Shown: piece after piece, positions 1-51,290 of the stretch
How positions within the stretch are numbered: position 1 is the stretch's first letter
How the letters are laid out: each line of letters starts with the position of its first letter
From: a virus
Virus record (IMG/VR): IMGVR_UViG_3300009826_000027
Length of the DNA stretch: 51,290 nt
Strand: one strand, 5' to 3'
Notes under the pieces: model-generated
Databases searched by the model: none
What the model was told of the DNA's origin: nothing
What the model saw: only the letters and a program-made list of their open reading frames with translations
Translations under genes and position numbers: made by a program

Positions 1-123
1 CCCTTCTGAAAATCGACGAGGTATCCGCTTGTCTACATATATCGGAGAACTTGCTCTGGATATGATAGTCGATGCGCCGCCGCGAGCACTACCTTGATAT
101 TTAGCATGTAATGCCGCGATACC
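1..123. repeat. Terminal direct repeat, left copy (identical to 51168..51290). Indicates a circular or circularly permuted genome closed by assembly overlap.
   Basis: Bases 1-123 (cccttctgaaaatcgacgag...atgccgcgatacc) recur verbatim as the last 123 bases of the window. The repeat lies inside an ORF and keeps its frame. Confidence 0.95.
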
Positions 124-1941
124 ATTGTCTCTTGCTGATTGTCTATAGTCCAAATTATGTTTTTCGGCATCAATTACAACCATAGAATGTCTAACCGCTC
201 TTGCTATTTCGTCTAAGTCAGCACCCTTAATAGTCATGTCTGTAATCAGATTGGATACGACGCCCATTTGTTTTTGTTTATTTGAGGGCGTTATTGGGCG
301 TATATTCGATCCTTCGGAAATTTTATACGATTCTATTGGATCGAATTGTGCCAACGATCGTAGTGCAGCCGAGGTCCGTACTTTACCGCTATTGTTAGGG
401 ATGACCAAAACCGTATCCCCATCAAAGTCTGCTCCCGACAATTGTCGGGCTACGATTGGATTTATACCAATCGCATCCGCCGGATCTGAACCCATAATAG
501 ATCGACCTTCTCTTGACTTATTATTTACTACCACTTGTGGTATTTCAAAGGTTCCTGCATGTGGATAGCGAATTAAAACCACCCTTTCGCCATCATTAAA
601 GCTGGGTGCATAAACTTCATTATTTTTTAGCGACGGGACTGGTAACAATACTTTTGTGGCTTGTCGAGGTAGTCCAGCGGCAGCTAGATGGCCGGCAGCC
701 GAATCCGCACTATCGGCAAATGCCATCAAAAGCTGTTTACGAACCACGGGATTTGTCAAAGCTTGAATTTCTTCAAATTCGGCCCGTTTACGACCGACGG
801 TTATATCTATCTGCTGTTGTACTAATGCGGCCGGTTGTTTTGATAAGAATTGGGAGGACAACACGTTTGACCATTCTTGCCAAGCTCCCTCTTCGCTGGG
901 CATGCTAGAAGATCCGATAATATTTATAGCGCCACTTTGTCGACCGATGGATGCGCCAAAAGGATTGTCTTGATCAATCGCTCCCGTTGCGGTACGTTGT
1001 AAAGGCTTCATGGCATCCAATTTATTACCAGTGTCTATTCTGGCACTATTATAAATCACATCTACTCCGCTTGGTAAATTATCACTATAAATGGCCATGC
1101 CCTTCATATAATGCGTGCCATCAACGCCGATACGGACTTGTGCATATCGAGATTTACCCATATCAAGATCTGACACGCCTCTACGTATTTCAATGACGCC
1201 GTCTTTAGACTTTCCGGCTTCTCCATAGCGTACTTGAATCCGGGCGGAATCCAACATCTCAATCGGCCTAATACCAAGATCGGAGAAATTGCGACCAAAG
1301 TCTTCGGATATAGCTGTTATTGGTTTGACAAGACTGACATCATTGATTAATTCTCGCCATTCCGTATCCGGCGCACCTAAAGCTTTAACAATCGTAAATT
1401 GTCCAGGTATTCCAACTTGAGGTACTTTTATCGAATGTAATTTATAGCCATGACTCTCTGTTAAAAGAGATACGGCAGTATCCAATCGAGTTGGCGACAT
1501 ATTTAATTGATTAGCGACACCTTTACCGACGTCGATGAATCGTTTTTGATCTACTTGGTCTTTTAGCATGGTCATAGTCGCATTTGTTATCTTTGCCCGC
1601 TCAGCGTTAACAGGATTTAGACGAAGTCGCACCGTTGATTCTGGAATCCCCATTCTATCTGCTATCGCTCGGCTAGACATACCACGAGCTTGAAGACGAA
1701 CGGCCTCTGCCGTTTCGCCAAGAATGATTTCATCTTTAGAGATAGAATTTCTAGCTCGATATTGATTTATCGATATCCCTTCGGCCCTAGCTATATCTCT
1801 TTCGGACATACCAGAAACTCGTAATAGTTCTACATGCCCGCGCCACCCTATCGAACGTTGAAAAGGGTTTTTACCAGACCCCCAGGGATAGCGACCAGAA
1901 CGTCTAGGTTGACCGATATGCGCTAATACATTTTCGCTCAT
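1..1941 (-). CDS. Two-barrel (YonO / RdRP-like) single-polypeptide RNA polymerase, N-terminal 647 codons. The ORF has no stop before base 1 and continues in frame at 51167 (887 aa in total).
   Basis: My own translation from ATG 1941..1939 (MSENVLAHIGQPRRSGRYPWGSG...) is open to base 1. The segment 415-582 encodes VVLIRYPHAGTFEIPQVVV..AIGINPIVARQLSGADFDGDTVLVIP, matching beta-prime [45 protein letters not shown] at 1096-1113 resembles beta HGNKGV. Tandem HTH-like segments lie at 1753-1812 and 1621-1683. This ORF is absent from the supplied track because it lacks an in-window stop. Confidence 0.75.
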   Translation of the reverse strand, partial: MSENVLAHIGQPRRSGRYPWGSGKNPFQRSIGWRGHVELLRVSGMSERDIARAEGISINQYRARNSISKDEIILGETAEAVRLQARGMSSRAIADRMGIPESTVRLRLNPVNAERAKITNATMTMLKDQVDQKRFIDVGKGVANQLNMSPTRLDTAVSLLTESHGYKLHSIKVPQVGIPGQFTIVKALGAPDTEWRELINDVSLVKPITAISEDFGRNFSDLGIRPIEMLDSARIQVRYGEAGKSKDGVIEIRRGVSDLDMGKSRYAQVRIGVDGTHYMKGMAIYSDNLPSGVDVIYNSARIDTGNKLDAMKPLQRTATGAIDQDNPFGASIGRQSGAINIIGSSSMPSEEGAWQEWSNVLSSQFLSKQPAALVQQQIDITVGRKRAEFEEIQALTNPVVRKQLLMAFADSADSAAGHLAAAGLPRQATKVLLPVPSLKNNEVYAPSFNDGERVVLIRYPHAGTFEIPQVVVNNKSREGRSIMGSDPADAIGINPIVARQLSGADFDGDTVLVIPNNSGKVRTSAALRSLAQFDPIESYKISEGSNIRPITPSNKQKQMGVVSNLITDMTIKGADLDEIARAVRHSMVVIDAEKHNLDYRQSARDNGIAALHAKYQGSARGGASTIISRASSPIYVDKRIPRRFSEG

Positions 1942-2498
1942 GTTACGCCCTCCGCCTTTAATCTTTCAATATGCTTGTCAGATTCTACTATTTTGTTCAT
2001 TATAGAAAAGATTTCTTCCGGCAAAGGATTATGTATTATTATTTCATCAGATTGGTAAATACGTAGTTCAGCTTCGATTTCATCAGGCTGATAATCATAT
2101 TCCAAACAGAATATTGCCATGTACACCATCAATTGTCTCATCGACGCCGGAGTTTCTCCAGATTTATAATCATGTATCCGAAGAAAATTCTTTTTAAAAG
2201 AAATGGCATCTGCAGTACCAAAACAATTATCGGAATAATATAACGGTTGTTCTGTTATCATGCGATAGCCGATAGCATCGTTCACGTACATATTTAATGT
2301 ACGCTTTGTCCGAGGGAGTCGCTCCTTCAACTCAATTAATTCGTGCGCCAATTCATGAAGTCGCGTACCTCGAAAACTGGCTCGATGTTTAACGTATCGG
2401 TCAGTTAGTTTTTCCGGAGTGTAATTAACCCAATGCGATCCGCTAGGGGCAAGAAATGCGTGCTCGCCTCGAAGGTGAGAATGCGAGTTGAAGTTCAT
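1938..2498 (-). CDS. PD-(D/E)xK (Cas4/RecB/DUF2800-like) nuclease
   Basis: Motif GTADAISF...LRIHDYKSGE fits the D...(D/E)xK pattern. I placed the start at an internal ATG (MNFNSHSHLRGEHAFLAPSGSHW) preceded by AAGGAGG 7 nt upstream. Its TGA overlaps the RNAP ATG (ATGA at 1938-1941). Confidence 0.6.
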   Translation of the reverse strand: MNFNSHSHLRGEHAFLAPSGSHWVNYTPEKLTDRYVKHRASFRGTRLHELAHELIELKERLPRTKRTLNMYVNDAIGYRMITEQPLYYSDNCFGTADAISFKKNFLRIHDYKSGETPASMRQLMVYMAIFCLEYDYQPDEIEAELRIYQSDEIIIHNPLPEEIFSIMNKIVESDKHIERLKAEGVT

Positions 2499-2760
2499 CC
2501 AAAATGTCCTCCTTGTTTTCAGGACAAACAAATGATGCAAACGACATATTATCTAACGTGTCGACATAATACTTCTGATTAGGTTGTCGACGTGCAGTAA
2601 TATTTCGTTTTACTTCAAGTGCCGCCCATGTGTTTTTGTACAAAATTAATAAATCCGGTATTCCCTGTAAATAGCCCTCATCATTTTTTAATACGATGCA
2701 ACTTGGAAATAAAGCTTTAATCTCTTTTATTAATTTCGCCTGAAATACTCTTTCAGTCAC
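2443..2760 (-). CDS. VRR-NUC-type PD-(D/E)xK nuclease (Holliday-junction-resolvase-like)
   Basis: GIPDLLILYKNTWAALEVKR fits the PD...ExK motif. The GTG start at 2760 is preceded by AAAGGAGG with a 5-nt spacer. The longer track ORF would read through a terminator hairpin. Confidence 0.6.
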   Translation of the reverse strand: MTERVFQAKLIKEIKALFPSCIVLKNDEGYLQGIPDLLILYKNTWAALEVKRNITARRQPNQKYYVDTLDNMSFASFVCPENKEDILDELQLAFSPSRRARISCP

Positions 2761-2773
2761 GACGGCCTCCTTT

Positions 2774-2805
2774 AAAAAAAAAAAGAGAAGAGCCATTCTC
2801 TTCTC
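2774..2805 (-). terminator. Rho-independent terminator-like hairpin followed by T11
   Basis: Minus strand reads gagaagag-aatgg-ctcttctc followed by ttttttttttt. It lies between the helicase stop and the VRR-NUC ribosome-binding site. Confidence 0.6.
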
Positions 2806-2806
2806 C

Positions 2807-2832
2807 TCTATTAGAGGCCGTGTTTTTATTGC
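2807..2832 (-). promoter_or_regulatory. Conserved 26-nt motif, copy A (minus strand GCAATAAAAACACGGCCTCTAATAGA)
   Basis: 25/26 identical to the copies at 14604-14629 and 18663-18688. All three are intergenic or overlap a stop codon, and all are in the same orientation as the genes. Confidence 0.5.
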
Positions 2833-2842
2833 AGACTGATTT

Positions 2843-4003
2843 TTAGGAAAATGTATAAATATTTTCATTAAAGCTTTGCTTATTATCGAATGCTTTTCTA
2901 ATATCGCGATCGATCGATGAGCTTGATATTAGATGATAATAATACAAATCGTTAAATGGAGTATTAAGTCGATCGATTCGCCCAGCCGCTTGAGTGCGAA
3001 TTTTATAAGAATAATGTTGGGAATAAAAAATCATCGCATCAGTTGTAATGCATTCCCAGCCTTCCGCGCCAGCCATATATTGTACGATATATAACCACTT
3101 TTCGGTGTCTGGTATTTCTTGATGTTTATGACCGTTCCATTCGCCAAGTGGTGTTCGAGTTCTTTCTGCTAGCTCTATTAACATATCTCTCTCGTAATTA
3201 AAATTATAAAAAATTATTAACCGAGGATGTTTTCGCATAAGGCATTCTATTGTATAGGTTCGTCTCGGATCACTATTAACTATACGCCGTAGTACATGAC
3301 ATAATTCGCCAACATCTTTGATAGGTTCTTGTTTATATACATGCCATCGCTCTATGGCGGCCATACGATATAAGTCCATATCATATGATACGGGCACATA
3401 CTTTATATGATGTTTTGTACGGATCCGATACTTCATCATAACAGTAACCTCTTGTCTACACTTCATAAGTCGACCAACCTCAATATATCGATCTATCTTA
3501 GGATATTTAGTGAAGGTGTTCCATACCACATGTCGACGAATAAACTCGGTCCGGTTCTTATAGAGTTTATTTGCGATGAAGACCGGGATATAATCCATCC
3601 ATGTATCACCAGGTGTTGCGCTGAGAAGTAACCAAGTATTAGTCTTAACGATCTCATGAAACGATTTCACCCAAGCGCCGCTACCAACTAATCGTTGCTC
3701 GTCAAAAATGAAAAATGCATCTTTAATCCTTATATATTTACCGATATTATTCCACGAGTCCACTACGATATCCGTATTCAGTAAATCGAATATCGCGCAT
3801 TCTTTTAACCACTCTTTATCATCTCGCTTTTTAGCTGTAGTGATAATATAAAGTTTTTTTAATCTATTGTCGATACGCTCATTATAATAATAGTAATAAA
3901 GGGCGGTTCTAGACTTACCAGAACCAACCCCACCTACCAAGATCTTACCTGACGACAGTTTATCTATGACCTCTTGTTGATGTTGTAACAAACTACGTGT
4001 CAT
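2843..4003 (-). CDS. SF2 (DEAD/SNF2-like) DNA helicase
   Basis: Walker A GGVGSGKS, motif II FDEQR, motif III SATP, motif VI QAAGRIDR. The start is probably ATG 4003 (MTRSLLQHQQEV); the track starts at an upstream GTG at 4027. Confidence 0.8.
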   Translation of the reverse strand: MTRSLLQHQQEVIDKLSSGKILVGGVGSGKSRTALYYYYYNERIDNRLKKLYIITTAKKRDDKEWLKECAIFDLLNTDIVVDSWNNIGKYIRIKDAFFIFDEQRLVGSGAWVKSFHEIVKTNTWLLLSATPGDTWMDYIPVFIANKLYKNRTEFIRRHVVWNTFTKYPKIDRYIEVGRLMKCRQEVTVMMKYRIRTKHHIKYVPVSYDMDLYRMAAIERWHVYKQEPIKDVGELCHVLRRIVNSDPRRTYTIECLMRKHPRLIIFYNFNYERDMLIELAERTRTPLGEWNGHKHQEIPDTEKWLYIVQYMAGAEGWECITTDAMIFYSQHYSYKIRTQAAGRIDRLNTPFNDLYYYHLISSSSIDRDIRKAFDNKQSFNENIYTFS

Positions 4004-4532
4004 GACGACATGCGCCTTTTGATCCACAGTTCATCCCGCAATTTGCACATAAATCTTCACCAATGGAAACTACATCATTCTCTGGTGCATCCATGTATTT
4101 TTGTTCAAACTCATCCTCAGTAATTGTGACGTACATCGACTTAAGGTATGCTTTTACTCCTTTACCGCCATTGGTTTCCCAATTATACGGTCTGATAATC
4201 AAATCGAGATTATCTATATCTGCCCAATCAAGCATTTTTATAGTGTCGTCATCAAGAGCAGTTTTACCTCTACTTGTAACCATTATTACTTTTGGGGGAA
4301 AACGGGAATCGAAGGATACCGCTACTGGCAAATAAGCCTGGGAATCATCCTGTTCATCCCGCGGCTTGAGTTCTCTTATATTCCATCCGTCCGACTTTAA
4401 ACTTGATGCCGTCTCGTGATCAAGTACTACACAAAAGTTCTTTGTATCTTTCGGGTTATATTTACCTTCTTTGCCCGAAAAATTCCTAAATATGATACGT
4501 GCATTTTCTATTATAATATTATTTGTAACCAT
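3993..4532 (-). CDS. Putative ssDNA-binding protein (T7 gp2.5 / DUF2815-like OB fold) with a Cys-rich C-terminal tail
   Basis: The pattern ENARIIFRNFSG...NFCVVLD...GWNI...DLIIRPYNWETNGGKGVKAYLKSMYV resembles gp2.5-like SSBs, and the gene sits in a DUF2800/DUF2815/helicase/VRR-NUC type module. The tail is CANCGMNCGSKGAC. Confidence 0.45.
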   Translation of the reverse strand: MVTNNIIIENARIIFRNFSGKEGKYNPKDTKNFCVVLDHETASSLKSDGWNIRELKPRDEQDDSQAYLPVAVSFDSRFPPKVIMVTSRGKTALDDDTIKMLDWADIDNLDLIIRPYNWETNGGKGVKAYLKSMYVTITEDEFEQKYMDAPENDVVSIGEDLCANCGMNCGSKGACRHDT

Positions 4533-10757: not shown

Positions 10758-11657
10758 TCATATCTGATCGTAAATCAAGCCGTCCACATTGAAATCGAGA
10801 AGCAATCTATTAATATGACCATTTACAAACTCTCGGTTTTTGATCGCTAATCCGTTAAAAATTCCGAAGTCAATATGGCCATCGCCTTCTCCATCGTGTG
10901 TCCACCCAACAACGGAGGCTTCCGATGAACGCGGAATCCCCAGTAAATCGTATACATCGTTTAGGAATACATGCCCTCGGGCAATGAGAAGATTATTCGC
11001 ATACTTCTGCTGTGCCAAAAGAAACATGTGATTATATTCCTGGTTCGACGACCATTGAGAACAAGTCTCGTCGAACCATCGAGCATAGATCGATGGTTGA
11101 TCGAAGTCGTCGGTAACTGGCGTATAAACTTCTTTTTTAACCGCCTTTTCTTTACCTTTTTCGTCGGCTACCATCTCGACGATTTCTTCCTTTTTGAGGC
11201 CGTGACGATATTGATAGTCGTGTTCTTCGCCGTGCTCCTCGACTACGCGTTGGCGATATGCAGTAAACCCCCGTTCAAGGGCCTTGTATGCCGCCGCCAT
11301 AGCAACATTGCGACCATGCATTATCTTGTATCCATTTCCTATGAGGAAAATGGATAATGCGGCCAAACTCACAGACGGACCATAGAGCTTGGCTAATTCT
11401 ATGCCAAAAGTAAAATACTGCTTTGTGAGTGCTTTTTGGCGCTCTTTCTCGTCATGGAATTTGGTATCTGAGACGGCCAACAATCGATCTTGATGTTCGT
11501 CAACTACGTCATCAAGTTTTCTTGTGGCGATAGCCGCGGTTACTCCGGCGCCAAGTAATCCAGCCGTGCCCGCCACGACTGCTATCGTAGGGGCATGTTT
11601 TTGCAGGACGAGTCCTGTGCGACCTAGGGTTGATAAAATATTAGTAATTACTTGCAT
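10758..11657 (-). CDS. Membrane protein (2 predicted TM segments); paralogue of 16665..17387 (DUF6353-like by recollection)
   Basis: Hydrophobic segments are PTIAVVAGTAGLLGAGVTAAIA and GPSVSLAALSIFLIGNG. The C-terminal module is LNDVYDLLGIPRSSEASVVGW...IDF. Confidence 0.6.
   Translation of the reverse strand: MQVITNILSTLGRTGLVLQKHAPTIAVVAGTAGLLGAGVTAAIATRKLDDVVDEHQDRLLAVSDTKFHDEKERQKALTKQYFTFGIELAKLYGPSVSLAALSIFLIGNGYKIMHGRNVAMAAAYKALERGFTAYRQRVVEEHGEEHDYQYRHGLKKEEIVEMVADEKGKEKAVKKEVYTPVTDDFDQPSIYARWFDETCSQWSSNQEYNHMFLLAQQKYANNLLIARGHVFLNDVYDLLGIPRSSEASVVGWTHDGEGDGHIDFGIFNGLAIKNREFVNGHINRLLLDFNVDGLIYDQI
11171..11259. repeat. 89-bp perfect direct repeat, copy 2 (inside CDS 10758..11657)
   Basis: Identical to 10552..10640. 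Encodes YRQRVVEEHGEEHDYQYRHGLKKEEIVEM. Confidence 0.95.
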
Positions 11658-14200: not shown

Positions 14201-14230
14201 CAAAAAAGGGAAGTGGACGATCCCACTTCC
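14201..14230 (-). terminator. Rho-independent terminator
   Basis: Minus strand reads ggaagtgg-gatcgt-ccacttcc followed by cttttttg, directly after the stop of 14244..14576. Confidence 0.65.
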
Positions 14231-14243
14231 AACTATATTAGAT

Positions 14244-14576
14244 TTAATAATGTACTGTTGCGTCATCATTGTTTTCAAATACTTCTATAAATCCTTTATC
14301 GATCTCCTCTTCATTAATAAGACTTTCAAATGTGCCTAGCATACTCGAGAGCTTTTCCAGCAGTTCAAAGTTCTTGCTCATTCGATCTGCGGCTATTCCG
14401 GAAGCGACGCCAGCAAGACCCCACTTCCCGACCTCACATGCCACCTTACCAAAAGTGGTTGTTAGCTCAGGAAGATTGTGTTTCACCAACTGCTTCACTA
14501 CATAACCAACCCCGACCGACGTCGCAATCATCGCCGTTATTTTAGCTCCGAATATAACCTTATCTCGAATTTTCAT
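14244..14576 (-). CDS. Hypothetical membrane-associated protein (110 aa)
   Basis: ORF with hydrophobic segments AKITAMIATSVGVGYVV and GKWGLAGVASGIAA. Confidence 0.55.
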   Translation of the reverse strand: MKIRDKVIFGAKITAMIATSVGVGYVVKQLVKHNLPELTTTFGKVACEVGKWGLAGVASGIAADRMSKNFELLEKLSSMLGTFESLINEEEIDKGFIEVFENNDDATVHY

Positions 14577-14603: not shown

Positions 14604-14629
14604 TCTATAAGAGGCCATGTTTTTATTGC
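14604..14629 (-). promoter_or_regulatory. Conserved 26-nt motif, copy B (minus strand GCAATAAAAACATGGCCTCTTATAGA)
   Basis: Overlaps the TAA of 14623..14958 and lies about 28 nt upstream of ATG 14576. Confidence 0.5.
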
Positions 14630-14958
14630 GCCGACGGCCATTCAATCGCATTTGTATCTTCTATTAACGCTCTTAATAGATATAAATAATTGAGATGGTC
14701 TGTAATCTTTTCTTCCCACATCGCGAGGGGATATTGTTTATTTTCAGCCGTACCCCGACACATGTCGAATAAGCTAACTGTGTGTTTAGCGAGCATACCT
14801 CCGAGTGCGTTGACTGGTGTTGTACCCTCTAGCGCGGCTGCGACTTTAAAGTTGTGTAGCCTATCTTCGGTTGCGTATTCAGAGGCCTTATTAATCAGAA
14901 CCTCTTTGCATCGTTTATGTTGATGGTTGAATATTTTTTCAAAATTTTTACTATTCAT
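14623..14958 (-). CDS. Hypothetical all-alpha protein, possibly a DUF1599/MazG-like nucleotide-binding fold
   Basis: Only a weak pattern resemblance (KASEYATEDRLHNF...AKHTVSLFDM...DHLNYLYLL). The functional call is speculative. Confidence 0.3.
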   Translation of the reverse strand: MNSKNFEKIFNHQHKRCKEVLINKASEYATEDRLHNFKVAAALEGTTPVNALGGMLAKHTVSLFDMCRGTAENKQYPLAMWEEKITDHLNYLYLLRALIEDTNAIEWPSAQ

Positions 14959-16167: not shown

Positions 16168-16398
16168 TTAAGTTGTTAAAGTCGCTATTACTTCTCCGGT
16201 TTTCGATAACGCCTCTAGGGTATCGTTGCCGCCTTCGGTTATAACTTCTAAAATTGGCTCTCCGTCCACGCCATATTTGGTTACCGCATATGCGATGCCT
16301 CCTATGACTAGAACCGATCCTATTACTAGAATTTTAACTTTATGGCGCTTTACGAACCCCTTTACCGTTCCGAATAAGCTCGTTTTAGTTTCATTCAT
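16168..16398 (-). CDS. Small single-TM protein (76 aa)
   Basis: ATG 16398 (MNETKTSLFG) is preceded by GGAGG 7 nt upstream. TM segment is KILVIGSVLVIGGIAYAV. Confidence 0.55.
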   Translation of the reverse strand: MNETKTSLFGTVKGFVKRHKVKILVIGSVLVIGGIAYAVTKYGVDGEPILEVITEGGNDTLEALSKTGEVIATLTT

Positions 16399-16437
16399 TT
16401 TAATGCCTCCTATAATTTTTTTAGTCTTCATTAGAGT

Positions 16438-16650
16438 CTATGTAATTTTTGCATCACTGACTACAATTCGAACCTCAGGTCCTTTATATTTGGTGCATTC
16501 TAGAAATATTTTTATATTGAAGATTGGATTTCGTCCCTCCCTGCCAGTGAGATATAATATATTACGGTATCCTTCTTCGTGTTGACAGCGGCCTATATTT
16601 TCACACATATTACATATAGCGGTGGATATCGAGTCTTTGTTCATAATCAT
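16438..16650 (-). CDS. Cys-containing small protein (70 aa)
   Basis: ORF with AGGAG ribosome-binding site. Contains CNMCENIGRC...C. Confidence 0.5.
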   Translation of the reverse strand: MIMNKDSISTAICNMCENIGRCQHEEGYRNILYLTGREGRNPIFNIKIFLECTKYKGPEVRIVVSDAKIT

Positions 16651-16664
16651 ATACTACTCCTATC

Positions 16665-17387
16665 CTACAAATGTCGCGGTGTAACCGCGTAATCCAATAC
16701 AATACACGCCTCTCCACTATCCGTAAGACATGTACCAAAGGACAATTCGATCAGACCAGTATCTAGATTCCAACCGACGTCATTACTTATTTTAGTCGGT
16801 TTTAAACCAATCTCATAATATAATTCATCCAGGGCGACAAAGGATTGATTTATTATTTGCGTATTTAGCGTATTTACCGTTCGCCGAATATGTTCGATAT
16901 TCGACTTAAAGTATCGGCCGCTAATGCTATCATAAAAGAGCGCCTCTCCTTTACCGGTTAGTATTATTTCAGACGAGCCCACGGGGCGAGAGTTAATGCG
17001 TTTGCCAAGCGCTTCTTCATACACCCCTTTTTCCTTTCTTTGGCCGATCGTTTCGACGTTTTTTTGTCTATACTCTTTAAATGCTAAATCAGTTAAAGAA
17101 TATAGCGACGCTATGGCTAATTGGCGCTTAGTCCCTATGTGATTTGCCCCCACGATACAAGTAATCGTGAGACCGGCAATCACGTACGTTCTTATATAGA
17201 ACTTCCAAGTCAGTTTTGCCATTTGAAGACGATTCTCTGGAACATCGCCTTCGAATTCATAATCATACCAGTTTCTAGCGTTTTTATGATCGCAAATCGC
17301 ACTATAGGCCGTAGCGATTACTCCCATAGTCCCTAGACCGGTGAGGATTAAGGGTAGATGTTGTAATATTGTAGATTTAATACTCAT
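16665..17387 (-). CDS. Membrane protein, paralogue of 10758..11657
   Basis: Same layout: N-terminal TM (LPLILTGLGTMGVIATAY), second TM (YVIAGLTITCIVGA), then AFKEYRQKNVE, then a C-terminal LDELYYEIGLKPTKISNDVGW module. Confidence 0.6.
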   Translation of the reverse strand: MSIKSTILQHLPLILTGLGTMGVIATAYSAICDHKNARNWYDYEFEGDVPENRLQMAKLTWKFYIRTYVIAGLTITCIVGANHIGTKRQLAIASLYSLTDLAFKEYRQKNVETIGQRKEKGVYEEALGKRINSRPVGSSEIILTGKGEALFYDSISGRYFKSNIEHIRRTVNTLNTQIINQSFVALDELYYEIGLKPTKISNDVGWNLDTGLIELSFGTCLTDSGEACIVLDYAVTPRHL

Positions 17388-18600: not shown

Positions 18601-18632
18601 ATAAAAAAATGTGAGAAGTATATACTTCTCAC
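18601..18632 (-). terminator. Terminator-like hairpin plus T-run in the 5' leader of 17384..18571 (possible attenuator)
   Basis: Minus strand reads gtgagaagt-atat-acttctcac followed by attttttta. It lies between motif copy C and the ribosome-binding site. Confidence 0.5.
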
Positions 18633-18662
18633 ATCAATTCATCAAGATATTCCATATTAATT

Positions 18663-18688
18663 TCTATTAGAGGCCATGTTTTTATTGC
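18663..18688 (-). promoter_or_regulatory. Conserved 26-nt motif, copy C (minus strand GCAATAAAAACATGGCCTCTAATAGA)
   Basis: Sits between two terminator-like hairpins. It differs at one position from each of copies A and B. Confidence 0.5.
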
Positions 18689-18690
18689 GC

Positions 18691-18720
18691 AAAAAAGGAA
18701 AAGGCACGTTTGAACGTGCC
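18691..18720 (-). terminator. Rho-independent terminator
   Basis: Minus strand reads ggcacg-ttcaaa-cgtgcc followed by ttttcctttttt, directly after the stop of 18727..19011. Confidence 0.6.
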
Positions 18721-18726
18721 CCGCTC

Positions 18727-19011
18727 CTAAAATCTTTTTCCAATAAACGTAAATGCTTTTGATGTTATGACGCCGATTTTCTCGTAATTGAGAATTAGCA
18801 AGGTCAATCCAACTTGACCAAGGATCGTCGCCATGACGTTCGGATCGAGCTTCTTTTTATCCTTATCAAGAAGTTCTTTCTTCATCATTAACGCGATCGC
18901 CTGTTCAACGTCTTCCGTCGACGTTGCTTTCTGTAACATCTGAGTTAATAGCTCATCCATCAAGTTTTCCGCTTGTCGTTTGTTTTTCCATTTAATGAGC
19001 AAGTTTTTCAT
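18727..19011 (-). CDS. Small protein with C-terminal TM segment (94 aa)
   Basis: ATG 19011 (MKNLLIKWKN) is preceded by GGGGGA 7 nt upstream. TM segment is VMATILGQVGLTLLILNY. Confidence 0.5.
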   Translation of the reverse strand: MKNLLIKWKNKRQAENLMDELLTQMLQKATSTEDVEQAIALMMKKELLDKDKKKLDPNVMATILGQVGLTLLILNYEKIGVITSKAFTFIGKRF

Positions 19012-19067
19012 TTGCCCTTCCCCCTTTCCTTTAAATATAGTATTCATTAGAATGCATGTAATTATTA

Positions 19068-19110
19068 CACAAAAAAATAGTAACCCTTGTAAAAGTTACT
19101 ATTTTTTGTG
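19068..19110 (-). terminator. Long AT-rich hairpin at the end of the late operon
   Basis: cacaaaaaaatagtaac / gttactattttttgtg forms a stem of about 16 bp with a 10-nt loop, between the 19114 stop and the next gene. The T-run is part of the stem. Confidence 0.45.
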
Positions 19111-21448: not shown

Positions 21449-21500
21449 GTAAAAATTTAGAGGCGATGTAAAACTATCGCCTCTTTAAAACGTATAATAT

Positions 21501-48849: not shown

Positions 48850-48902
48850 AAGTTAAGGCCTCCTTTCACATAAATCTTTAATGACAGATTCTCCGTCAGT
48901 CT

Positions 48903-49007
48903 GAAAACATTTAGTTTTTGACTAGGGGTCCTTGAAAGGAGCTCCGGGCTCACCAATCCCGAAGATAAAGTGTCGGCTTTACCCCTAGTCAAAAACTAAA
49001 TGTTTTC
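48903..49007. repeat. Perfect 26-bp inverted repeat with a 53-nt spacer
   Basis: gaaaacatttagtttttgactagggg (48903-48928) pairs with cccctagtcaaaaactaaatgttttc (48982-49007). Confidence 0.95.
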
Positions 49008-49183
49008 TAAATTTTATCCCCCGGAGAAAAATTTAAAAGAGAGGCGATGCAAGGGGGGGTGGGTTTTTACGGACCCTGCCCCCATATACATAGGTGTGAT
49101 AGCCCCTAGTACGTCTAGAGGAAGCAACTGCGCGCATAATGAAATAGTTTTTCATTATGTTTTGTATACTTTTTTACAAGGGA

Positions 49184-49277
49184 CAAATACAGAAATAAAA
49201 AGAAATACAGAAATAAAAAACAAATACAGAAATAAAAAACAAATACAGAAATAAAAAACAAATACAGAAATAAAAAG
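49184..49277. repeat. Tandem repeat, 5 x 18-19 nt (CAAATACAGAAATAAAAAA)
   Basis: Copies start at 49184, 49202, 49221, 49240 and 49259. Confidence 0.95.
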
Positions 49278-49360
49278 TTTATAATTTCAAATAATGATAT
49301 TGTATGAAATTGAATATTTATCAATTAACGAGTGATTGGATGTGGTAATACGAGCTAAAA

Positions 49361-49498
49361 ATCTATATCATTGTATAATGATATAGATTCTTTTTAAATT
49401 GTAACGAAAAATCATTAAATTGAAATTATAGCATTATACAATGATATAGATTCTTTTTAAATTGTAACGAAAAATCATTAAATTGAAATTATAGCATT
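49361..49498. repeat. 12-bp inverted repeat (49361-49388) leading into a 59-bp perfect repeat present twice with a 63-nt period
   Basis: The inverted repeat is atctatatcatt-gtat-aatgatatagat. The repeat aatgatatagattctttttaaattgtaacgaaaaatcattaaattgaaattatagcatt occurs at 49377-49435 and 49440-49498. Confidence 0.95.
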
Positions 49499-49530
49499 TA
49501 AACTAAAATTTACTTATTTTAGAAATTACA

Positions 49531-49660
49531 AATTCTAACAAAAAAAGATTTGTAATTAATTATCTATAGAATCGTTGAAACGAAGGCATCTATAAATTGT
49601 AATGTATGTGTGGGAGAGAATAAGATACATCAGGCATTACAAATCTTTTTTGTTAGAATT
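49531..49660. repeat. About 25-bp inverted repeat with a 79-nt spacer
   Basis: aattctaacaaaaaaagatttgtaat (49531-49556) pairs with attacaaatcttttttgttagaatt (49636-49660), with a one-base bulge. Confidence 0.9.
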
Positions 49661-50059
49661 TATGACTCTACTCGAAACTCAAAGGCGTTAAAATAAAACA
49701 CATATAGGCGTGAGTAAACAATCAATCATGTGTTCGATGACTGACAATATAAATATATAATTAATATGTAAGGTATATATGCCATTATATAGATATGAAT
49801 GTTACAAAGGAATAAATATCATGAGTAGACAGGATAACCTCAAACATAAACGTAGACGTAGACGCCGACACTTTACTTTCCAGAACTAGCGAGTCTAAAA
49901 ACGCTTTCAAACAATGATTTATTCAATAAAATACGCCATATTTAAAAGGGGTATGTAATATAAGGTGCATCATAAAGATCGAGTCCATATACGCATTCAC
50001 TACGATAGACAAGCTATTAACATCATTCAATAAAGGCAGGATCTAAAGGATATAAAGAT

Positions 50060-50146
50060 TTAAAATAGGGCCCTATTTTAAAGACTGTCCTATTAACACA
50101 AGACACATTAAAAGTAGGACTTGTATAGTAAGGACCCTGTTTTAAA
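50060..50146. promoter_or_regulatory. 22-bp perfect palindrome plus a third copy of its half-site (AGGNCCCTNTTTTAAA); candidate protein-binding sites
   Basis: The palindrome ttaaaatagggccctattttaa lies at 50060-50081. The half-site aggaccctgttttaaa lies at 50131-50146. Confidence 0.5.
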
Positions 50147-50201
50147 TCGATGGGGGGGTTATAGGGGGGCTCAAGGTAGAATCAAAGACTAGTGTGTCTT
50201 T

Positions 50202-50444: not shown

Positions 50445-51290
50445 TTATTTCAAAGCCTCCATTAAAGTCGAAACAGAGATTCCTAATTGAGCTGCGACCT
50501 CTGCTTGAGTGAATCCTCCTGCTAACATCGCCCTTGCTCTTCCTGTATTAACTTGTGCGAGGGGGGTCTGTCTAGGTGTGGCAAGCTGCTTAACTTGATC
50601 TAGATTAGTATTCGTTAAGATGTCGGCCAATCGAGTAGGACTTATTGCCCCTGCTTGAATGGCCTCCCATTCTCTTTCTGAAATAACAATTCTATCCTTA
50701 CCCGCTCCGGTTCTAGCACGAGCTTCGGCTAATGCCTGATTACGTACTTTAGTAAGAGCATCACGATCGGTATCCAAGGAAGGATTTTCTTGTCGTTTAC
50801 GATTTACAATACTTGTCGCTATCATTTGCGCTTGTCGCTCTAAAGGAGCATTCTTATTGGCGGCATTTAAAGCAGCAGTTAATCTGGCCACTTCAGCGGA
50901 ATAAGTTTGTCTTGCCGTAGGACTATAAGAAGTAGGTACTATTCCTAATGACTCTCGACGCGCACTATTAGCTAAAGCCTTTAAGTTATTGGCAAATCCG
51001 GCATAAATCTCTTCTACATGTTGACCAGAGGATAATATGCGCGCATCTGAGGTCTCTGCCATGCGGGTTGTGCGAGTTTGGGTTTTAACCGTTTCCCCTT
51101 TGGCGTTGACAAAAGATTCCGCAACCACCGTAAACTCTCGTTCGCCTGTATGAGGGTTTATAGGCCCCCCTTCTGAAAATCGACGAGGTATCCGCTTGTC
51201 TACATATATCGGAGAACTTGCTCTGGATATGATAGTCGATGCGCCGCCGCGAGCACTACCTTGATATTTAGCATGTAATGCCGCGATACC
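50445..51290 (-). CDS. C-terminal part of the two-barrel RNA polymerase ORF (240 unique codons, 50445-51167; 51168-51290 duplicates 1-123)
   Basis: Codon phase at 51167 equals that of the track ORF 50445..51128 (both positions are 2 mod 3). My translation gives ...RRFSEGGPINPHTGEREFTVVAESFVNAKG.... A C-terminal HTH-like segment GGFTQAEVAAQLGISVSTLMEALK lies at 50448-50519. Confidence 0.75.
   Translation of the reverse strand, partial: GIAALHAKYQGSARGGASTIISRASSPIYVDKRIPRRFSEGGPINPHTGEREFTVVAESFVNAKGETVKTQTRTTRMAETSDARILSSGQHVEEIYAGFANNLKALANSARRESLGIVPTSYSPTARQTYSAEVARLTAALNAANKNAPLERQAQMIATSIVNRKRQENPSLDTDRDALTKVRNQALAEARARTGAGKDRIVISEREWEAIQAGAISPTRLADILTNTNLDQVKQLATPRQTPLAQVNTGRARAMLAGGFTQAEVAAQLGISVSTLMEALK
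51168..51290. repeat. Terminal direct repeat, right copy
   Basis: Identical to bases 1-123. Confidence 0.95.

Follow-up and report, generated by a model that had tools for sequence, protein, structure and literature searches.

A conserved ~30-bp element as candidate promoter for a helix-turn-helix-bearing two-barrel RNA polymerase in phages of Actinobacteria and Firmicutes

Single-chain, two-barrel RNA polymerases (RNAPs) are encoded by tailed phages such as P23-45 (gp96 and gp64) and the crAss-like phage phi14:2 (gp66), in which phage-specific motifs lie upstream of early genes. In P23-45, the virion RNAP gp96 is associated with an AT-rich motif and the non-virion RNAP gp64 with a GC-rich motif, as mapped by Cappable-seq and chromatin immunoprecipitation. 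A further enzyme of this kind, YonO of the Bacillus prophage SPbeta, serves a long operon with a start upstream of a small non-coding RNA; the YonO paper left the sequence of its promoter, P_YONO, undetermined. Here we analyse a 26-nucleotide (nt) element that recurs in IMG/VR virus record IMGVR_UViG_3300009826_000027, a stretch of 51,290 nt referred to below as the window, and that is probably the core of a ~30-bp promoter for the single-chain two-barrel RNAP of the phage itself. The locus resembles those of P23-45 and phi14:2 in its type of enzyme, in belonging to a tailed phage and in carrying a phage-specific motif upstream of early genes, and YonO is likewise the single-chain two-barrel RNAP of a Firmicutes siphophage. 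The motif sequences differ from those of P23-45, which were mapped experimentally, whereas the motif described here is known from sequence. Terminal helix-turn-helix (HTH) domains have not been reported for the P23-45 enzymes, nor is YonO described with them, whereas the HTH-bearing family considered here spans phages of Actinobacteria and Firmicutes. No described promoter was found for this RNAP family in the literature searched, which did not include the older papers on phages 1706 (Garneau 2008) and ReqiPepy6 (Summer 2011).

The 26-mer GCAATAAAAACATGGCCTCTAATAGA has exactly three matches in the window at three mismatches or fewer (copies A, B and C, Table 1), all on the minus (gene) strand, to which the positions of all copies refer, and none in 100 dinucleotide-preserving shuffles. 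A preliminary description of this DNA had indeed reported three near-identical 26-mers in gene orientation. The three strong copies stand, but a total of three does not: two weaker copies, D and E, surface on the same strand at 7-8 mismatches to the 26-mer. When the window was scanned with a weight matrix built from relatives, the source of all motif bit scores given here, no plus-strand match reached 6 bits and nothing beyond the five copies appeared on the minus strand. The surroundings of the strong copies are also as first described. Copy A lies 11 nt past the helicase open reading frame (ORF; 2843..4027), the stop codon of ORF 14623..14958 sits inside copy B, copy C lies downstream of a terminator hairpin, and the flanks around all three are not conserved. 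A Shine–Dalgarno (SD) site and an ATG follow copies B (ATG at 14576), D (16398) and E (19011). In the stretches 16398-16431 and 19011-19047, the first in-frame ATGs of two ORFs, 16168..16431 and 18727..19047, fall inside the motif, within TAATGA; the better starts, with strong SD sites, are 16398 and 19011. The exact window motif has no match in IMG/VR, and its 8 scattered single matches in 596 Gb of genomes, all in unrelated taxa, are read as chance.

A variable but clearly related element emerges when the family is considered as a whole. The first comparison set, 80 IMG/VR loci encoding a related DNA polymerase, was scanned with the window 26-mer, and a weight matrix was then iterated over these loci and the window, a search of genome and relatives that had been proposed in the preliminary description. 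The iterated matrix returned 314 matches in this set and, across all loci fetched, 872 matches (about 794 distinct), every one of them in gene orientation. The consensus spans ~30 bp and reads TCGC-N7-ACA-N5-TATAAT-RRAA. Counting the initial G of the window 26-mer as position 1, we find a T-rich upstream stretch followed by TCGC (-1..2), AAwwACA (6..12), five variable bases, TATAAT (18..23) and RRAA (24..27). The core of the element as originally delimited is retained but its boundary is not, conservation in relatives reaching 2-3 nt further upstream into the TCGC box. Across the family, 71% of instances carry exactly TATAAT as the hexamer. The five window copies carry TCTAAT or TCTTAT; in this phage, the TCGC box is reduced to its last two bases, GC, and the AAwwACA box reads AAAAACA.

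Scanning IMG/VR with the exact consensus yielded at least 120 stretches, and 83 of the 120 fetched hold homologues of this phage's proteins in their short flanks. Among deposited phages of Actinobacteria, Arthrobacter phage Heisenberger has 8 copies of the family consensus (28-42 bits) and Gordonia phage Rickmore 8 matches to it, 7 of them above 30 bits. Among those of Firmicutes, Lactococcus phage 1706 has 10 matches of 8 bits or more, reading TTyCACAtGTTTTACAtanaCTATAGTAGAAAG, and Faecalibacterium phage FP_oengus has 11 variant copies (aCGCGAAAAAwwCA-N5-CTTTATGGAR). Dp-1 and FP_Epona, two phages of Firmicutes hosts that were first taken for relatives, proved unrelated and became negative controls, contain no motif match. 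The motif co-occurs with the polymerase gene in 1706, Heisenberger, Rickmore, FP_oengus and the IMG/VR relatives, its absence being seen in two negative controls. Conservation of the motif across host phyla persists where proteins are about 50% identical. The A/T content of the actinophages far exceeds that of their hosts (GC content of 45% in Heisenberger versus 63% in its host). Hexamer variants cluster by genome (0.771 versus 0.697 +/- 0.007 after shuffling, with none of 2000 shuffles reaching 0.771). A division into two promoter subclasses (AAAAACA...AGAA versus AAwTTACA...GAAA) was rejected, the association being only modest (odds ratio of 2).

Conservation also extends to position in the genome, on which the preliminary description had made its promoter reading depend. 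A copy after the helicase gene is found in most relatives, and in every relative inspected for layout it is accompanied by a hairpin, a T-run and an SD site. The Heisenberger genome likewise has a motif copy immediately 5' of the endonuclease, exonuclease and RNAP genes; Rickmore keeps this gene order, but no motif copy was found at that position.

The place of the motif between transcription units points to where transcripts would begin. The T-runs of upstream terminators adjoin its 5' side, and three types of unit lie downstream: an SD site with a start codon (602 of 781 distinct instances), a tRNA-like gene, or a short hairpin RNA ending in a T-run. Fourteen of 26 tRNA-like genes predicted by ARAGORN have their 5' ends 1-5 nt beyond the final T of the hexamer, and in their acceptor stems the RRAA bases are paired to the 3' end (e.g. 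TATAAT followed directly by GAAAAGT). In about 100 instances, the 5' arm of a hairpin that closes directly on a T-run has its first base at motif position 24 or 25, versus 0-13 at positions up to 22; for SD cores, 67 of the 602 units have the onset at positions 24-30. Because tRNA-like 5' ends, hairpin onsets and SD cores, all of them indirect indications, agree, the start is placed at or beside position 24, the purine after the hexamer, so that transcription would begin immediately after the hexamer. Relative to this predicted start, TCGC lies at -25..-22, AAwwACA at -18..-12, the hexamer at -6..-1 and RRAA at +1..+4, the three elements being spaced by about one helical turn. The tRNA-like genes of relatives (Table 1) form good cloverleaves with odd anticodons (UUA of the ochre-suppressor type, anticodons of 2 or 4 nt, and ANN), each gene being fused directly to a promoter copy and having a T-run at its end. 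No tRNA-like gene of that kind is present in the window, in which Rfam and ARAGORN detected no known RNA family and no tRNA.

This architecture invites comparison with the promoters of T7, T3 and SP6. As in those phages, the element would be a single contiguous promoter (~23-30 bp) present in many copies in gene orientation, with lineage-specific variants that match the lineage's own enzyme and with some transcripts that would open with a hairpin. SP6 promoters read CTATA followed by GAAG and the motif TCTAAT followed by AGAA, in each case an A/T-rich stretch and then a purine-rich start. The 3' half of the motif (T.TAAT followed by RRAA) is similar to that of the T7-type block (about -17 to +6, with TATA at -4..-1), whereas upstream the motif reaches back to -25 and is divided by variable spacers into separate boxes, three in all. 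The likeness to SP6 and T7 promoters proposed earlier is sound as a resemblance (TATA, purine-rich start) but is a functional analogy only, the polymerase here being unrelated to T7 RNAP and having a two-barrel fold like those of multi-subunit RNAPs and QDE-1. Where T7, T3 and SP6 enzymes use a specificity loop, recognition here is probably by fused HTH domains. As previously stated, no T7-like RNAP gene is encoded: only four ORFs exceed 600 amino acids, namely the tape measure, a DNA primase/polymerase, the two-barrel RNAP and a protease-capsid fusion. T4 middle promoters similarly combine a TATAAT-like hexamer with a phage-specific upstream box that replaces the -35 element; unlike the motif, whose predicted start adjoins the hexamer, they are used by host core enzyme with sigma-70 at the usual -10 spacing.

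The presumed reader of the motif is a protein of 887 amino acids encoded on the minus strand from an ATG at 1941 to position 1 and then, across the junction of the window ends, from 51167 to 50445. The first 123 nt of the window are identical to the last 123, and because of this identity the window is taken to be complete and circular, with an assembly length of 51,167 bp; since the gene crosses the window ends, it was missed in the ORF listing. Its start codon overlaps the exonuclease stop. The protein has DFDGD, and a GADFDGD loop is invariant in 34 homologues. Pfam detects Sigma70_r4_2 at residues 79-108 (42.8 bits, above the curated cut-off) and a second HTH at residues 857-887, and orf75 of phage 1706 has the same two-HTH layout. 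The C-terminal part carries the PHROGs label 'RNA-dependent RNA polymerase'. An AlphaFold2 model (mean predicted local distance difference test score of 73.5) was examined for a homologue whose identity to the window protein is 53% in the N-terminal two-thirds and 55% in the C-terminal third. A fold search of the PDB with this model (Foldseek) matched QDE-1 (E 7e-8), phage gp64 RNAP (8f72, E 5e-5) and plant RDR2, with bacterial beta-prime subunits as weak matches ranked below; a PDB sequence search with the 1706 RNAP gave nothing, matches coming from the fold search alone. The same RNAP reading was predicted by HHpred in Koert et al., who grouped the protein with YonO-like and RdRP-like (RNA-dependent RNA polymerase-like) enzymes. 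The protein is thus a credible predicted two-barrel RNAP with a QDE-1/gp64-like fold and an HTH at both ends, in line with the mention of such an enzyme in the preliminary description. The 1300-amino-acid ORF was considered as RNAP and rejected, as it is the DNA primase/polymerase. In two metagenomic relatives (L093, 8687-11365; L094, 8290-11008), two or three neighbouring ORFs take the place of a single RNAP frame, which may be due to sequencing frameshifts on low-coverage contigs or reflect a genuinely split enzyme. Plus-strand ORFs at 236-1196 (110, 100 and 81 amino acids, no family matches) run antisense inside the RNAP gene and are most likely not genes.

Taken with its single orientation, its occurrence throughout the family and a geometry unlike that of sigma-70 promoters, the shared RNAP favours the earlier suggestion that the motif is a promoter for this enzyme, a reading in which we have good, if not full, confidence. 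A phage-encoded reader is preferred because phages of Actinobacteria and Firmicutes that carry the motif all encode the same HTH-bearing RNAP. In this model, the HTH domains fused to the polymerase, an N-terminal one resembling sigma-70 region 4 and a C-terminal one, would recognise the two upstream boxes in double-stranded DNA, and the A/T-rich hexamer would be the region that melts; both the identity of the reading enzyme and the assignment of boxes to domains are what we infer. The five window copies would drive accessory and early-region genes, with copy A driving the endonuclease-exonuclease-RNAP operon and placing the polymerase gene behind its own type of promoter.

The foremost alternative is that the motif is an ordinary promoter of host RNAP with sigma-A, in which the hexamer serves as the -10 element and the upstream boxes as UP-like or extended elements. 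Recognition of the -10 element by sigma-A is common to Firmicutes and Actinobacteria. The high proportion of exact TATAAT hexamers would suit such a promoter, as would the TG found 1-2 nt upstream of the hexamer in many relatives. The remaining geometry does not. At 16-18 nt, where a -35 element would be required, there is only a T-rich bias, and the conserved boxes are found instead 5 nt and 15 nt in front of the hexamer. All five window copies have a C at the essential -11 A position, and FP_oengus has CTTTAT. A start 6-8 nt past the -10 element would cut into the tRNA-like stems, hairpin arms and SD sites that begin 1-7 nt after the hexamer. Conservation of the TCGC and ACA boxes across host phyla, and clustering of hexamer variants by genome beyond chance, also argue against a host reader. 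Sigma-70 -35/-10 elements in every register and sigma-54-like -24/-12 elements were compared with the conserved boxes and none fits; sigma-70-like sites show no enrichment anywhere in the genome. We consider this explanation unlikely.

T4 middle promoters combine a good -10 element with an activator box near -30, and by analogy the HTH protein, or another phage factor, might be a specificity factor of the sigma or MotA type, guiding the host core RNAP to the motif. The sigma-70 region-4-like HTH domains are compatible with such a role, and the protein family is RNAP by prediction only (Koert et al.). A start right after the hexamer misfits any sigma-70-family open complex on host core, however, and an invariant GADFDGD together with a two-barrel fold would be hard to explain in a mere DNA-binding factor, which makes this explanation quite improbable.

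The preliminary description had also raised the possibility of a binding site for a phage regulator, to which an operator for a phage repressor may be added, or of a processing site in RNA. The motif is longer than a simple pair of promoter hexamers, and copy A contains a short palindrome, CCTCTAATAGAGG. Neither copies B and C nor the relatives have this palindrome, and the motif is asymmetric. Because units end in terminators just before the motif and new ones begin just after it, it lies between transcripts rather than inside one, and both roles are now disfavoured as very unlikely. Least probable of all is a function of the repeats as recombination 'boundary sequences' for module shuffling, to which the small, variable accessory genes bordered by the motif and the rearrangement-prone cassette flanked by repeats in the Giantsbane preprint (10.1101/2020.01.10.891226) could be related: a transcription signal is indicated rather than a recombination site because the orientation is strictly one-way, the distances to SD sites, start codons and tRNA 5' ends are fixed, three discrete boxes are conserved and conservation crosses phyla at about 50% protein identity, and recombination at the motif could be a side effect. 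That preprint describes a 32-bp intergenic repeat around small genes after the tail module, conserved across cluster AU, and reads it as a recombination boundary, without a link to the RNAP-like gene or a comparison with phages outside that cluster; matched by description only, it is probably the same element as the motif.

Several observations weigh against assigning the motif to the phage RNAP. Support for a promoter role is, throughout the family, entirely comparative. The placement of the start depends on predicted tRNA-like structures, hairpins and SD sites, and base composition introduces some bias into the histogram of hairpin onsets. Most relatives have a hexamer that matches TATAAT perfectly; host sigma-A holoenzyme could use it, and dual or early use by the host polymerase could occur in these phages. 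The window copies deviate at the best-conserved upstream bases of the family (T-25, C-24) and may, given these departures, be weak promoters. Since the RNAP gene lies behind its own promoter type, the first enzyme molecules need another source. Finally, transcripts from copies A and C would at once meet canonical intrinsic terminators, an unexpected arrangement for promoters that are productive. These hairpins fall within the first 30-60 nt of the transcripts predicted from the two copies, and could be attenuators, small RNAs or insulators obeyed by host RNAP only.

A more specific version of the phage-RNAP reading is put forward tentatively, at rather less than even odds. The enzyme would be a self-sufficient, sigma-fused RNAP whose HTH domains read TCGC and AAwwACA and which starts after the hexamer without a host factor, using the same grammar in two phyla and, in relatives, perhaps producing the 5' ends of tRNA-like RNAs directly by initiation. 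The leader terminator at copy A would then form an autoregulatory switch for the RNAP operon and possibly for late genes.

Table 1. Positions of motif copies, neighbouring features and the polymerase gene in the window, and of tRNA-like genes in related loci (L numbers).
Feature	Position	Strand	Predicted start	Remarks
Promoter copy A (predicted)	2832..2807	minus	2809	1 mismatch; 21.6 bits
Promoter copy B (predicted)	14629..14604	minus	14606	1 mismatch; 21.8 bits
Promoter copy C (predicted)	18688..18663	minus	18665	0 mismatches; 25.4 bits
Weaker promoter copy D (predicted)	16452..16427	minus	16429	GCAAAAATTACATAGACTCTAATGAA; 19.2 bits
Weak candidate copy E	19068..19043	minus	19045	GTAATAATTACATGCATTCTAATGAA; 7.6 bits, uncertain
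Endonuclease	2760..2443	minus		between copy A and RNAP gene
Exonuclease	2540..1938	minus		between copy A and RNAP gene
Hairpin and 11-T run	2781..2809	minus		from predicted +2 of copy A; dG -14.2 kcal/mol
Hairpin and T-run	18608..18635	minus		about 30 nt past copy C; dG -18.8 kcal/mol, z -4.0
Intrinsic-terminator-like hairpin	18701..18722	minus		just upstream of copy C, ends preceding unit
Terminator-like hairpin	14209..14230	minus		closes one-gene unit begun by copy B
RNAP gene, 5' two-thirds	1..1941	minus		DFDGD loop and N-terminal sigma-70 region-4-like HTH
RNAP gene, 3' third	50445..51290	minus		C-terminal HTH; phrog_4291; 51168-51290 duplicate 1-123
tRNA-like gene, L126	10901-10976
tRNA-like gene, L139	3413-3487
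tRNA-like gene, L140	13450-13527
tRNA-like gene, L158	13312-13384
tRNA-like gene, L146	10339-10435
tRNA-like gene, L196	6272-6342
tRNA-like gene, L162	2836-2913
tRNA-like gene, L001	5357-5429
tRNA-like gene, L012	3362-3434
tRNA-like gene, L038	2603-2676
tRNA-like gene, L079	4009-4082

The arrangement of the units around the copies is summarized in Table 1. Copy A heads an operon composed of the endonuclease, the exonuclease, the RNAP and an ORF of 79 amino acids, and copy C is flanked by two terminator-like hairpins. No strong minus-strand terminator is present between copy A and about position 21484, so that, in principle, transcription from copy A could continue past the junction and reach the structural genes.

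Almost all genes of the window lie on the minus strand. Annotation with PHROG and Pfam revealed a siphophage gene set that comprises the terminase, portal and protease-capsid fusion, a tape measure protein of 2435 amino acids and a collagen-repeat fibre, together with a DNA primase/polymerase of 1300 amino acids, a single-strand annealing protein, the helicase, the endonuclease and the exonuclease. A megablast search of 20 kb against INPHARED found nothing, and there is no close relative among the phages deposited there. Because gene order, DNA polymerase and the 887-amino-acid protein match, the sequence places the phage in the Lactococcus 1706 / Arthrobacter AM-AU / Gordonia DJ supercluster. 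This supercluster joins Lactococcus phage 1706, Faecalibacterium phage FP_oengus and the actinophage clusters AM/AU/AW, DJ, BI, CC and EL (partly Koert et al.). The RNAP has homologues in 250 phage records; for the DNA polymerase, 252 records contain full-length matches, and the leading host genera are shared by both lists.

Two further features of the genome deserve mention. Two paralogous DUF6353 proteins (10758-11657 and 16665-17387, E about 1e-58 each) are encoded in the non-structural region. The RNAP operon is separated from the packaging genes by an AT-rich non-coding block of ~1.2 kb (48,900-50,200), which contains a 19-nt tandem repeat in five copies (49183-49291), a 63-nt direct repeat in two copies (49364-49489), an inverted repeat of 27 nt with perfectly matching arms (48903-48929 / 48981-49007) and several further inverted repeats. 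Each copy of the 63-nt repeat includes a sigma-70-like site on the minus strand (TTTAAA-17-TATAAT/TACAAT), and the block may be a cos/pac site, an origin or a region of host promoters.

Promoters specific for phage RNAPs are already known; what appears to be new is a promoter grammar for an uncharacterised family of HTH-bearing two-barrel RNAPs in phages of two phyla. YonO-like single-chain RNAPs are seen as models of ancestral polymerases, and the way in which such enzymes find their promoters was left unresolved by the YonO paper. The present analysis offers a sequence-level promoter model with a predicted start, drawn from hundreds of natural variants in two phyla and paired with an enzyme that is predicted to carry its own sigma-like DNA-binding domains. 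If the cluster AU repeat is the same element, an intergenic repeat once read as a recombination signal gains a new interpretation. Cultivable systems, including Lactococcus phage 1706 and phages of Arthrobacter, Gordonia and Streptomyces, make the pair of promoter and enzyme directly testable, and this pair could provide a host-independent expression system for Gram-positive bacteria.

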